A stretch of DNA of 32,000 nucleotides from Candidatus Saccharimonadota bacterium (lineage in GTDB: Bacteria > Patescibacteriota > Saccharimonadia > Saccharimonadales > Saccharimonadaceae), in contig NZ_CP045921.1 of the NCBI RefSeq assembly GCF_025273655.1, forward strand, positions 570,001-602,000, in the 5' to 3' direction. Of the stretch, positions 17,554 to 25,346 are shown in pieces (positions within the stretch are counted from its first letter, which is position 1; every line of letters begins with the position of its first letter). The notes under the pieces were generated by a model, which was given only the letters and a program-made list of their open reading frames with translations, searched no databases and had not been told where the DNA came from. Position numbers and translations under genes: made by a program.

Positions 17554-17590
17554 CATAAAAACTAGCACTCACGTCAAGCGAGTGCTAGTT
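17554..17590 (-). terminator. Rho-independent terminator immediately upstream of clpP
   Basis: 11-bp stem AACTAGCACTC/GAGTGCTAGTT (17560-17570 / 17580-17590). The minus strand continues TTTTTATG. The loop contains TTGACG. Confidence 0.65.
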
Positions 17591-17601
17591 TGATATTCTA
17601 G

Positions 17602-17635
17602 GACTACCCCTCTCGGCTCGGGAGGGTGGGTAGTC
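17602..17635. promoter_or_regulatory. About 13-bp bulged hairpin carrying the third copy of the CTCTCGGCTC motif (plus-sense)
   Basis: GACTACCC..GGGTAGTC outer stem and CTCTC/GAGGG inner stem. Motif at 17610-17619, so the minus-strand RNA carries GAGCCGAGAG here. Confidence 0.5.
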
Positions 17636-17678
17636 GCTGAATGAAGTTTCAGCCGAGGCTACCGCCAGGTAGACGGTC

Positions 17679-17810
17679 TCAGAGCCTCTTCCCGCTGGTA
17701 CTGTGATCAGGTAATACACGGTCACAGAAGACCACGTAGGCCAGGTAGTGAAGCGGCTCCACGATGGTCTTGACCTTGCGCGCGATCACAGTGCGAACAC
17801 GATTGTTCAT
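17679..17810 (-). CDS. Small ORF, 43 aa (MNNRVRTVIARKVKTIVEPLHYLAYVVFCDRVLPDHSTSGKRL)
   Basis: Hand-translated; below the ORF-track cutoff. GGAGGTG 5 nt upstream. ATG overlaps the stop of the upstream 57-aa ORF as ATGA. Confidence 0.45.
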   Translation of the reverse strand: MNNRVRTVIARKVKTIVEPLHYLAYVVFCDRVLPDHSTSGKRL

Positions 17811-17980
17811 ACGTCACCTCCAGGTGTGTCAAGCAGCGAATACTTTATCGACGCGAATGGACTTGAAAACTCGACGGGTCGCTGCACTCCCGCCCTGCGA
17901 TTCGCCAGCTCACAGAGCACAAACGTTGCAGCAGCCAAACCAGCAAGCTGGAGTGCGGCCTTCAGGTATGGATCCATCAT
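17807..17980 (-). CDS. Small ORF, 57 aa (MMDPYLKAALQLAGLAAATFVLCELANRRAGVQRPVEFSSPFASIKYSLLDTPGGDV), one predicted TM helix
   Basis: Hand-translated; below the ORF-track cutoff. GGGGAG 4-7 nt upstream of a double ATG. Preceded by the TATAGT box and the CTCTCGGCTC leader. Confidence 0.5.
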   Translation of the reverse strand: MMDPYLKAALQLAGLAAATFVLCELANRRAGVQRPVEFSSPFASIKYSLLDTPGGDV

Positions 17981-17992
17981 TTTCTCCCCTCT

Positions 17993-18021
17993 GAGCCGAG
18001 AGTTATGCCTACAATACTATA
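17993..18021 (-). promoter_or_regulatory. TATAGT box (18016-18021) + 13 nt + CTCTCGGCTC leader motif (17993-18002) for small-ORF pair 2
   Basis: Minus strand: TATAGT attgtaggcataa CTCTCGGCTC AGAGGGGAGAAA ATG. CTCT can pair with AGAG of the SD region. Confidence 0.5.
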
Positions 18022-18032
18022 ATTTAATTTAT

Positions 18033-18059
18033 ACAAAAATACACACCAAGCGGTGTGTG
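18033..18059 (-). terminator. Rho-independent terminator after small-ORF pair 1
   Basis: Stem ACACACC/GGTGTGT (18041-18047 / 18052-18058), loop of 4 nt, minus-strand tail ATTTTTGT. Confidence 0.65.
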
Positions 18060-18129
18060 CGACTCAGGGGATTGCGCTCTCGACTCCAGAATAGTCGCAA
18101 TCCGTCAAACTGTCTACCTCACATAGCTG

Positions 18130-18321
18130 TCACTCGTCGATGGGCCAACCATCTGCCTCCGCGAGTGCTACGAATGTAGCATACCTTCGCGAAACGCCGA
18201 GGACGCCCATGGGTCGTCGCTGAAAGACCGGAGGCAAATTACTACCCCTTGCAACGCCAGTCACTACCGCTACGGCAGCAGTGACAACCGAGGCACCAAC
18301 AAAAAAGCCAAACTTTTTCAT
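18130..18321 (-). CDS. Small ORF, 63 aa (MKKFGFFVGASVVTAAVAVVTGVARG...), N-terminal signal/TM segment
   Basis: Internal ATG of the 92-aa track ORF. GAGGAG 6 nt upstream. ATG overlaps the stop of the 84-aa ORF as ATGA. Confidence 0.55.
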   Translation of the reverse strand: MKKFGFFVGASVVTAAVAVVTGVARGSNLPPVFQRRPMGVLGVSRRYATFVALAEADGWPIDE

Positions 18322-18572
18322 GTTACTCTCCTCGACACCTGTCGACGCGCCACATAGCGCGCCGCAATCACTCTGGGAGTATCGGCCGCGATCATTGCTA
18401 CGCCGCAATCAAACACGCGGTCGCATCCGGCCTGAACCATGCAAGTCAGTCGACCGAGAGACGATGCGCCATACTTTTCGACGCGACCGTCAATCGGCTC
18501 TCCTACCAGCCATGCAGCACCGACAAGAGTCGAACCGATCGTGGTGATGACTGCAGACCCTCTGTTTTTCAT
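18318..18572 (-). CDS. Small ORF, 84 aa (MKNRGSAVITTIGSTLVGAAWLVG...), N-terminal TM segment, 3 Cys
   Basis: Internal ATG of the 110-aa track ORF. GAGAGGA upstream. Preceded by the TATAGT box and the CTCTCGGCTC leader. Confidence 0.55.
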   Translation of the reverse strand: MKNRGSAVITTIGSTLVGAAWLVGEPIDGRVEKYGASSLGRLTCMVQAGCDRVFDCGVAMIAADTPRVIAARYVARRQVSRRVT

Positions 18573-18589
18573 ATTCCATCCTCTCTTTG

Positions 18590-18615
18590 GAGCCGAGAGC
18601 ATGGTGTGTACTATA
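18590..18615 (-). promoter_or_regulatory. TATAGT box (18610-18615) + 10 nt + CTCTCGGCTC leader motif (18590-18599) for small-ORF pair 1
   Basis: Minus strand: TATAGT acacaccatg CTCTCGGCTC CAAAGAGAGGATGGAAT ATG. CTCTC can pair with GAGAG of the SD. Confidence 0.5.
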
Positions 18616-18618
18616 CAA

Positions 18619-19902
18619 CTATTTCGCGTTGAGCGCAACCAACTCGTCAATCGTCTTGTCAGTTAGCAGACGATTTGCAATATCGCGCTGCACCTCTGGC
18701 GTAGCTAGTTGCTTGCGCATGTCTTCGGAGGGGTATTGCTGGCCGAGCAAGTTCATTTTTTCGAGCAATTCAGCATCTGTCGCCTGCACCTTGAGCACCT
18801 TACTCAGGTCGGCAAGCACTAGACCAGCTTTTACGCGGTTCACTGCAGCTTCTTTGACTTCGCTCTCTAACCAAGCATCTTTGTCTTTGAAATCTTTTTC
18901 CGCCAAGTACATGTCGAGTGTCAAACCACGCTGCATGAGGTTTTGCACCATATCCTGCTCTATAGAGCGCATCTGATCCTGTACTAGGATTTCTGGCACT
19001 GGTACGTCGCTCTTCTCTACCAGTTCACTAACGAGCGCATCCTTCAATTTGTCATCAGCTTCACTCTGCTTTTGCTTGGTGATCTCGGCTTTAATATCGT
19101 CTTCGAGTTCTTTGACCGTTTTGAATGGACCGGCTTTTGCCGCTAATTCGTCGGTCAGCTCTGGCTCCACCACCTCTTTGACTTCGTTGAGTGTGACACT
19201 AAACACAACCTTGGCACCTTTGAGGTCCTCGACATGATAGTGCTCTGGAAACGCCAGGTCGAGATCGAACTTGTCACCGGCTTTATGCCCCACGATGCCG
19301 TCTTCGAAGCCAGGGATGAAACTGTCACTGCCAAGCACGATATCATAACCTTCGGCTGTGCCGCCATCAAACGCTACACCCTCTTTTTTGCCGACGAAGT
19401 CGATGTTGACTTCGTCGCCTTTTTTAGCTTTGCGGTCAGCTGGTTTTTTCTCAGCATAGCCTGCGCGGATACGGTCAATAATCTCATCAACGTCTTTTTT
19501 GGTGACACTGACTTTTTCTGGCTTCGCGGCAAGCTTCTTGTAGTCACCGAGCTTGATCTTGGGCAAAATCTCACTCGTAGCGACGAATTCGAGTTCGCTG
19601 CCGGGCTCAAACTTCTTGACTTCTACCTCTGGTCGATCAAGTGCCTGTACTCCTGCGTCAAGAAACGCATCTGCTACAGCCTTGGACAACGCGTTTTCCA
19701 GTGTATGCTGTGCAAGATCATTGGGATTGACATGTTTGGCTGCCACGCTCGCAGGAACCTTGCCTTGGCGAAAACCAGGGACTTTGATGTCTCGTGCGAT
19801 TTTGGTCAATGCCACCAGTTCGGCGTCTTTCAGCTCATCGGCACTAACAGTAATAGTAAGTTCGACTTTCGTCTCGGATAGGTGTTTTGTAGTTTGCTTC
19901 AT
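18619..19902 (-). CDS. tig: Trigger factor
   Basis: 427 aa with the ribosome-binding signature GFRQGKVP and a central FKBP-type domain. TGcTATACT lies 9 nt upstream of the ATG. Confidence 0.95.
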   Translation of the reverse strand: MKQTTKHLSETKVELTITVSADELKDAELVALTKIARDIKVPGFRQGKVPASVAAKHVNPNDLAQHTLENALSKAVADAFLDAGVQALDRPEVEVKKFEPGSELEFVATSEILPKIKLGDYKKLAAKPEKVSVTKKDVDEIIDRIRAGYAEKKPADRKAKKGDEVNIDFVGKKEGVAFDGGTAEGYDIVLGSDSFIPGFEDGIVGHKAGDKFDLDLAFPEHYHVEDLKGAKVVFSVTLNEVKEVVEPELTDELAAKAGPFKTVKELEDDIKAEITKQKQSEADDKLKDALVSELVEKSDVPVPEILVQDQMRSIEQDMVQNLMQRGLTLDMYLAEKDFKDKDAWLESEVKEAAVNRVKAGLVLADLSKVLKVQATDAELLEKMNLLGQQYPSEDMRKQLATPEVQRDIANRLLTDKTIDELVALNAK

Positions 19903-25259: not shown

Positions 25260-25346
25260 TGGTACAGATGAGAGGACTTGAACCTCCACGTCCCGAAGGA
25301 CACTAGCACCTGAAGCTAGCGCGTCTACCAATTCCGCCACATCTGC
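25260..25346 (-). tRNA. tRNA-Leu (anticodon CAG), type II, CCA encoded
   Basis: 87 nt: GCAGATGTGGCGGAATTGGTAGACGCGCTAGCTTCAGGTGCTAGTGTCCTTCGGGACGTGGAGGTTCAAGTCCTCTCATCTGTACCA. Long variable arm, close to E. coli tRNA-Leu(CAG), with a G1-U72 wobble. Confidence 0.95.

Follow-up and report, generated by a model that had tools for sequence, protein, structure and literature searches.

Predicted 5'-3' closure of small membrane-protein mRNAs encoded between tig and clpP in Candidatus Mycosynbacter amalyticus

Closest described systems and the tig-clpP locus

The anti-Shine-Dalgarno (anti-SD) sequence and the 5'-3' long-distance interaction (LDI) have been named as key determinants for recognising type I toxin mRNAs and serve as descriptors in T1TAdb (PMC8594479). 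The control of hok involves the pairing of tac with fbi, a metastable 5' hairpin and the mok-hok coupling (PMC9841398), and in aapA3 local anti-SD hairpins could be formed during transcription, with the 5'-3' LDI established later (PMC6733600). The pairing between the 5' and 3' untranslated regions (UTRs) of the icaR mRNA of Staphylococcus aureus has been reported to control icaR translation (PMC3868564). The present analysis concerns the 1-kb interval between the genes tig and clpP of Candidatus Mycosynbacter amalyticus, a cultivated Saccharibacterium, in a stretch of 32,000 nucleotides (contig NZ_CP045921.1, positions 570,001 to 602,000) that is called the window below. The trigger factor (Tig) of the window and that of this organism are 100% identical. 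The interval would comprise two transcription units in tandem, driven by separate promoters and encoding clade-specific proteins mostly with one membrane helix; they are designated as unit 1 (WIN-1, proteins A84 and B63) and unit 2 (WIN-2, proteins C57 and D43). We consider it fairly probable that each mRNA is closed in cis, within its own unit, by an LDI like those of hok and aapA, which would control these small membrane-protein mRNAs.

As in hok/Sok (PMC9841398), the extreme 5' end of the mRNA is predicted to pair with the 3' end, the 5' element has an alternative local partner downstream, and overlapping coupled frames, small hydrophobic products and copies in tandem or at variable chromosomal sites are found. 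The module departs from hok/Sok in several respects: its proteins are related to Hok neither by sequence nor by Pfam family, the scans yielded no antisense promoter of the Sok kind, the 3' partner is exposed in the loop of a hairpin, up to eight open reading frames (ORFs) are contained in a unit, and the sequestration of the Shine-Dalgarno (SD) sequence in the closed form is not consistently predicted. The likeness to the aapA/IsoA loci of Helicobacter pylori (PMC6733600) comprises an anti-SD near the SD, transient co-transcriptional hairpins followed by a stable 5'-3' LDI, the support of both features by covariation, and the multicopy state of the loci. However, the SD of aapA is masked by the 3' anti-SD itself and the antisense IsoA is essential there, while the 3' element of the module would pair with the leader rather than chiefly with the SD, with no antisense RNA in evidence. 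The icaR mRNA (PMC3868564) likewise pairs a short 3' UTR motif with its own 5' UTR, but there a pyrimidine 3' motif lies on the SD and the cargo is a regulator, whereas in the module a purine-rich 3' loop would lie on a pyrimidine leader upstream of the SD and the cargo is small membrane proteins.

The module resembles a type I toxin mRNA in its architecture, and by this analogy a toxin role may be suggested; membership in the type I toxin-antitoxin systems is not established, since no antitoxin RNA and no homology to known toxins were found. We know of no described 5'-3' mRNA closure element in this bacterial group. The literature search found no paper linking type I toxin-antitoxin systems to Patescibacteria, and the literature on M. 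amalyticus that was examined does not mention the locus. It may tentatively be proposed that the units are the first example in Patescibacteria (the Candidate Phyla Radiation, CPR) of membrane-peptide modules that are type I toxin-like and controlled by fold-back, of a new design in which an inhibitory or activating 3' element would be presented in a hairpin loop and form a pseudoknot with the 5' end, with an orthogonal leader/loop code for each paralogous unit, and that the peptides could serve self-addiction or be directed against the Gordonia host. An mRNA closure of this 5'-3' type, backed by covariation and absent from Rfam, would be an additional regulatory RNA element for CPR; the locus also offers a natural series of orthogonal leader/loop pairs for studying the evolution of long-range mRNA pairing, as well as orphan membrane peptides that evolve fast in an obligate, host-lysing parasite. 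Few CPR bacteria have been brought into culture, Ca. M. amalyticus among them, so that the prediction is directly testable.

Architecture of the units and covariation of their mRNA ends

The gene order on the minus strand is hisS, tig (19902-18619), the 1-kb interval and clpP (17568-16945); the coordinates of elements below refer to the minus strand of the window, and L-numbers denote the loci of relatives. The orthologous tig-clpP intervals were taken from GTDB genomes and from ENA and Logan assemblies, with Tig and the small proteins as queries. Eighteen units of the same plan were found in 11 related genomes, with one or two units in L148, L150/151, L001, L002, L139/140, L149, L141, L142, L144/145 and L156. 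A -10 box (TATAGT, TATAAT, TATACT, TACAAT or TATTGT) is followed by a spacer of 6-10 nt, a pyrimidine-rich leader of 9-15 nt, an SD and 1-8 small ORFs; the 3' end is made up of a hairpin with a loop of 15-21 nt, the 3' edge of which is the complement of the unit's own leader, and usually of a terminator. The leaders are anti-SD-like (CUCUC; CCUCC in L141-2) and the loop complements SD-like (GAGAG, GGAGG), while the 5' part of most loops is pyrimidine-rich. The elements of unit 1 are as follows.

18610-18615, minus strand: -10 box TATAGT, 4 nt past the tig stop codon (18621-18619)
18588-18600 (core 18599-18590), minus strand: leader GCTCTCGGCTCCA, beginning 10 nt past the -10 box
18579-18585, minus strand: SD of A84, GAGAGGA, whose GAGAG is also able to pair with the leader CUCUC over 5 bp
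18318-18572, minus strand: A84, an ORF for an 84-aa orphan with a hydrophobic N-terminal segment, also called by an independent gene caller
18130-18321, minus strand: B63, 63 aa, one transmembrane (TM) helix and an LPP[VIL] motif, ATGA-coupled to A84
18069-18103, minus strand: 3' hairpin, 8-bp stem GGAUUGCG/CGCAAUCC, 19-nt loop
18034-18058, minus strand: intrinsic terminator, stem 18058-18041, then a T-run

An earlier note on this DNA had reported the -10 box, leader, coupled ORFs and terminator of unit 1, all of which were found again, and had passed over the unit's own 3' complement. By the repeat search, the complement TGGAGTCGAGAGC at 18088-18076 matches the leader (18600-18588) at 12 of 13 positions, the mismatch being G.U; it constitutes the 3' part of the hairpin loop, extending one base into the stem, and its pairing with the leader has a probability of 0.98-1.00 in the full-length fold. 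A TTGTATAnT box stands at the same position in L148, L001, L139, L141, L142, L149, L150 and L156. The unit 1 leader is predicted to lie at or near the mRNA 5' end: that a leader follows just past each -10 box was correct in the note, and the mRNA 5' end that it placed there is a putative start site. The elements of unit 2 are the following.

18012-18021, minus strand: -10 region with overlapping TATAGT (18021-18016) and TATTGT (18017-18012)
17984-18002, minus strand: leader CTCTCGGCTC (18002-17993), then SD GGGGAG (17989-17984)
17807-17980, minus strand: C57, an ORF for 57 aa with one hydrophobic helix, also called by the independent gene caller
17649-17810, minus strand: D family gene, an ORF of which D43 is 17810-17679, ending at TGA
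17602-17635, minus strand: 3' hairpin, stem GACUACCC/GGGUAGUC, 18-nt loop ACCCUCCC-GAGCCGAGAG

The -10 box of unit 2 may be TATTGT, at a distance of 8 nt from its leader; this is the box used in L139-2 and L144. The leader with its SD (18002-17986) is complementary to 17626-17610 by the repeat search, and the resulting 5'-3' helix has a pairing probability of 0.94-1.00 in the full-length fold, the SD bases included: the CCCUC of the hairpin loop is able to cover the SD, and the helix extends across it by GAGGG with CCCUC at 0.94-0.98. In the hairpin, 17635-17628 pairs with 17609-17602 over 8 bp and the leader complement lies at 17619-17610, so that the third, opposite-orientation copy of the leader motif is indeed inside a hairpin, as had been claimed; its stem is not of about 13 bp, the minimum free energy fold adding four weak inner pairs on top of the 8 bp. 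Three exact copies of CTCTCGGCTC are present (18599-18590 and 18002-17993 on the minus strand, 17610-17619 on the plus strand), and the 10-mer is not commonplace, with no other exact copy in 32 kb, an expectation of 0.14 and none of 100 shuffles reaching three. The complement of the leader motif is thus present at the 3' end. The sequence CCTCGGCTGA, taken before for a partial copy of the motif, lies at 17658-17649, 2 nt from the position given for it, and is coding: the D43 TGA is followed in frame by DRLPGGSLG-stop (17678-17649), where CCTCGGCTGA encodes the conserved C-terminus S-L-G-stop of the D family, and L141 encodes the same residues with other codons.

The pairing was tabulated column by column for 15 of the 18 units (14 distinct rows), with L141-2 and both L156 units kept outside; the table was made by hand in Python, the MAFFT alignment A1 having misplaced indels. 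In the 10-bp core of the 5'-3' helix, 137 of 139 cells are paired. Among the compensated changes, U-A is replaced by C-G at column 9 in three rows; at column 2 it is replaced by C-G in L142-2 and by G-C in L156-1, while at column -1 G-C and A-U alternate. Indels are compensated as well: in L001-2 and L156-2, CTCTCGGGCTC stands with GAGCCCGAGAG, the extra G being matched by an extra C, and in L142-1, CTCTCGGTC stands with GACCGAGAG, the lost C being matched by a lost G. The leader TGTCCTCCGGTA of L141-2 is unrelated to the others and has its exact complement TACCGGAGGACA at the same loop position in the same architecture. The seven uncompensated core changes comprise five to G.U on the sense strand (WIN-1, L139-1/L149-1, L139-2, L142-2 and L156-2), none to A.C, and two breaks, namely U.U at the helix end in L144 and C-to-A at strain level in leader 2 of L150; the G.U on the sense strand, never A.C, is accounted for better by pairing in the sense transcript than by DNA repeats or an antisense RNA.

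Of the 16 units whose 3' hairpin was measured, 14 have a stem of 8-10 bp. The stems covary and at least nine of their sequences are distinct, while a 7-bp stem was reached at only 5.5% of control positions. The partition-function folds of whole predicted transcripts (189-957 nt) gave the 5'-3' helix a probability of 0.97-1.00 in 13 of 14 units and of 0.63 in the shortest. Judged by these compensated changes, the data show both helices, the 5'-3' helix and the hairpin stem, to be under selection. The hairpin of the leader with the SD, proposed earlier as an SD-sequestering device, can be formed over 4-5 bp only and is not supported as the selected feature: in L156-1 the 5'-3' helix is kept by the compensated change while the leader:SD complementarity is weakened, which shows the long-range helix to be the primary selected feature.

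Proposed mechanism and rival explanations

According to the proposed mechanism, the leader of the nascent RNA would be able to form only a weak local hairpin with its own SD, and in the finished mRNA it would pair with the purine-rich complement at the loop 3' edge of its own 3' hairpin, the closure probably stacking on the hairpin stem as a pseudoknot. Such closure may set the stability and translatability of the full-length mRNA, like the hok tac/fbi pairing and the aapA LDI, and may exist because the untimely synthesis of membrane peptides would be harmful. The transcription start sites, an effect on translation or decay, and the toxicity are what we infer here.

Several observations weigh against this interpretation. 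The start sites are taken from the -10 boxes only; the leader 2 of strain L150 carries the uncompensated C-to-A change; and taking the 3' element away shifts the predicted SD accessibility in opposite directions in different units, so that activation and repression cannot be told apart, clear SD masking in the closed form being predicted in WIN-2 and a few other units only. With 1-8 ORFs, the units are unlike the classical one-toxin loci. Some unit-1 copies have no clear terminator, and read-through there would make leader 2 internal, while the strong conservation of the core sequence suggests that recognition of the sequence as such may play a part as well. Scans that capture the promoters of this organism poorly detected neither a sigma-70-like site on the opposite strand nor an antisense -10 box conserved across units. 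The module is limited to one genus-level clade, and the pattern scans outside it yielded only chance matches: 20 in viral contigs for TATAGT-N8-14-CTCTCGGCTC and 36 in JGI metagenome contigs for the same pattern plus GAGR (SD), none with a 3' complement.

The alternative that survives best, and which we regard as rather unlikely, is that the closure is a plain mRNA stabiliser guarding the 5' end of harmless membrane-protein operons, with no toxin logic or translational switch. It agrees with the position of the helix near the predicted 5' end, the inconsistent change of SD accessibility, the want of an antitoxin RNA among the findings and the several ORFs per operon. However, it leaves unexplained the anti-SD-like character of the leader and the SD-like character of the loop, which hold for the unrelated L141-2 pair as well (CCUCC with GGAGG), and the covering of the SD by the WIN-2 helix; the rapid turnover, tandem copies and strain-level decay are, moreover, typical of addiction-type or accessory loci.

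The control of both leaders by one trans-acting RNA, be it the hairpin of pair 2, a 3'-derived small RNA (sRNA) or an antisense RNA, had been the suggestion of the earlier note, and it is improbable. The two leaders of the window are identical, the unit 2 loop is perfectly complementary to both, the cross-duplexes are merely 2-4 kcal/mol weaker than the cognate ones, and an sRNA could plausibly take the form of a hairpin with a terminator behind it. But unit 1 has its own complement, as does each other unit, and in the six two-unit genomes the duplex with the own hairpin is more stable than that with the other unit's hairpin for all 12 leaders; in five of these genomes the units have diverged and each leader matches its own hairpin only. 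If an antisense RNA were made from the hairpin, its sequence would be that of the leader and not the complement, so that it could not pair with the leaders; the scans revealed no promoter either on the opposite strand or upstream of the hairpin.

Least credible of all is the action of the repeats as DNA (site-specific inversion, cassette exchange, or terminal repeats of a small mobile element), for which the inverted repeats of 9-15 bp around each cassette, the presence/absence polymorphism of the locus and the shuffled cargo would speak, but against which stand the bias of the uncompensated mismatches to sense-strand G.U, the -10 box always outside and the SD always inside the repeats, the complement always in the loop of an independently covarying hairpin, the single orientation in every assembly with no recombinase among the neighbouring genes, and the protein families found at this locus only, with no copies in viral contigs.

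Encoded proteins, insertion site and neighbouring sequences

The four ORFs listed before were recovered by the independent gene caller with the same lengths in identical Logan contigs, the two downstream SDs being GAGGAG and GGAGGTG, and both pairs have the ATGA overlap. The ratio of nonsynonymous to synonymous substitutions (dN/dS) is 0.27 for A84 and 0.15 for B63 between the window and L148, and, between L139 and L149, 0.09 for a 27-aa TM peptide, 0.23 for B93 and 0.15 for the 30-aa 'GxTDxPPG' peptide. By this measure (0.09-0.27), the comparison shows the ORFs to be real coding genes under purifying selection, and the frames are constrained in relatives, but B63 is destroyed in strain L150. 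The proportion of synonymous differences between the window and L148 is 0.34 for A84, 0.54 for B63 and 0.81 (saturated) for the adjacent tig; the low values of A84 and B63 may reflect either a constraint by RNA structure or a recent exchange between lineages.

A TM-grade hydrophobic segment (Kyte-Doolittle at least 1.7) is present in 9 of the 12 first ORFs examined, and C57, B63 and the same fraction of first ORFs are small (<60 aa) hydrophobic proteins as defined for type I systems. The recurring families, whose order is shuffled between genomes, are B (TM helix with LPP[VIL]), D (helix, DR motif and C-terminal GGSLG), a 30-aa family ending with GWTDYPPG, 'RYxxTHxAW' and 'LYxGWC'. The B family has seven members among 5.8 billion clusters and the D family seven representatives among 1.84 billion, and in the protein searches these and other families of the module turned up at the tig-clpP locus only. 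B63 is the annotated hypothetical protein GII36_03305. Pfam and NCBIfam, including the known toxin families Hok/Gef, Ldr, Fst and TisB, gave nothing at E <= 1 except one chance match, PADLOC gave no match at E <= 1, and PHROGs gave weak matches to relatives' proteins only (best E 0.005), mostly to families of unknown function; A84 had no Pfam, NCBIfam, PADLOC or PHROG match. The AlphaFold model of the D family, a single low-confidence helix with a predicted local distance difference test score (pLDDT) of 66, was set aside. On this comparative evidence, the proteins of the module are orphans, clade-confined, shuffled, and decaying in some strains.

In strain L150/L151, about 97% identical to the window, D is full length (53 aa), with CGA (Arg) replacing the TGA of the window (17679-17681), and the counterpart of C57 in L150 has 56 aa. 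B63 in L150 (L150:1800-2790) was destroyed by an ATG-to-ATA change and a deletion of 121 nt. The turnover of the module, as read from such strain differences, is fast.

The tig-clpP interval is empty, with the genes 0-67 nt apart, in L143, L146/147, L003, L005, L006 and L007. As judged from these relatives with tig adjoining clpP, the module is an insertion. The earlier note is supported in its view that the small-protein module is duplicated, controlled at the level of RNA and inserted between these two genes. In the more distant Saccharibacteria L004 (L004:7260-8040) and L008 (L008:7260-7840), the gap holds one unrelated multi-TM gene each (135 aa and 114 aa, respectively) with its own promoter and terminator and without the leader/loop design, so that the gap is a recurrent insertion site; both intervals were rejected as members of the module for lack of its architecture. 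The genes near the locus are hisS, tig, clpP, a VIT1 gene and rpoB.

The generic scan for a -10 box, a 9-mer and its downstream complement in a hairpin loop returned, in the window and 148 kb of relatives, only the known units and the background of shuffled controls. An extra copy of the 10-mer in L002, antisense within hisS, was discarded as a chance match. In L143, a genome without the module, the VIT1-orf143 operon (L143:5409-6682, minus strand) is flanked by a 5'/3' complement of 9 nt, together with a -10 box and a hairpin of 8 bp; this bracketing is at chance level, and the homologous operon of the window was not flagged in the generic scan. The search of Rfam at gathering thresholds gave, for the window, a single match, a tRNA gene at 25263-25346 (minus strand), and at E <= 10 the interval gave only noise at E = 5.3.

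Directly upstream of clpP, at 17554-17591 (minus strand), there is an inverted repeat, perfect over 12 bp, AAACTAGCACTC-N9-GAGTGCTAGTTT, with a T-run behind it. Its core resembles the consensus of the CIRCE/HrcA operator, TTAGCACTC-N9-GAGTGCTAA, and TTGACG, the -35-like element of the predicted clpP promoter, is situated inside its loop. The repeat is probably both the unit 2 terminator and the heat-shock operator of clpP; it is kept in all relatives, including those with the empty site, and L004 has the exact consensus.

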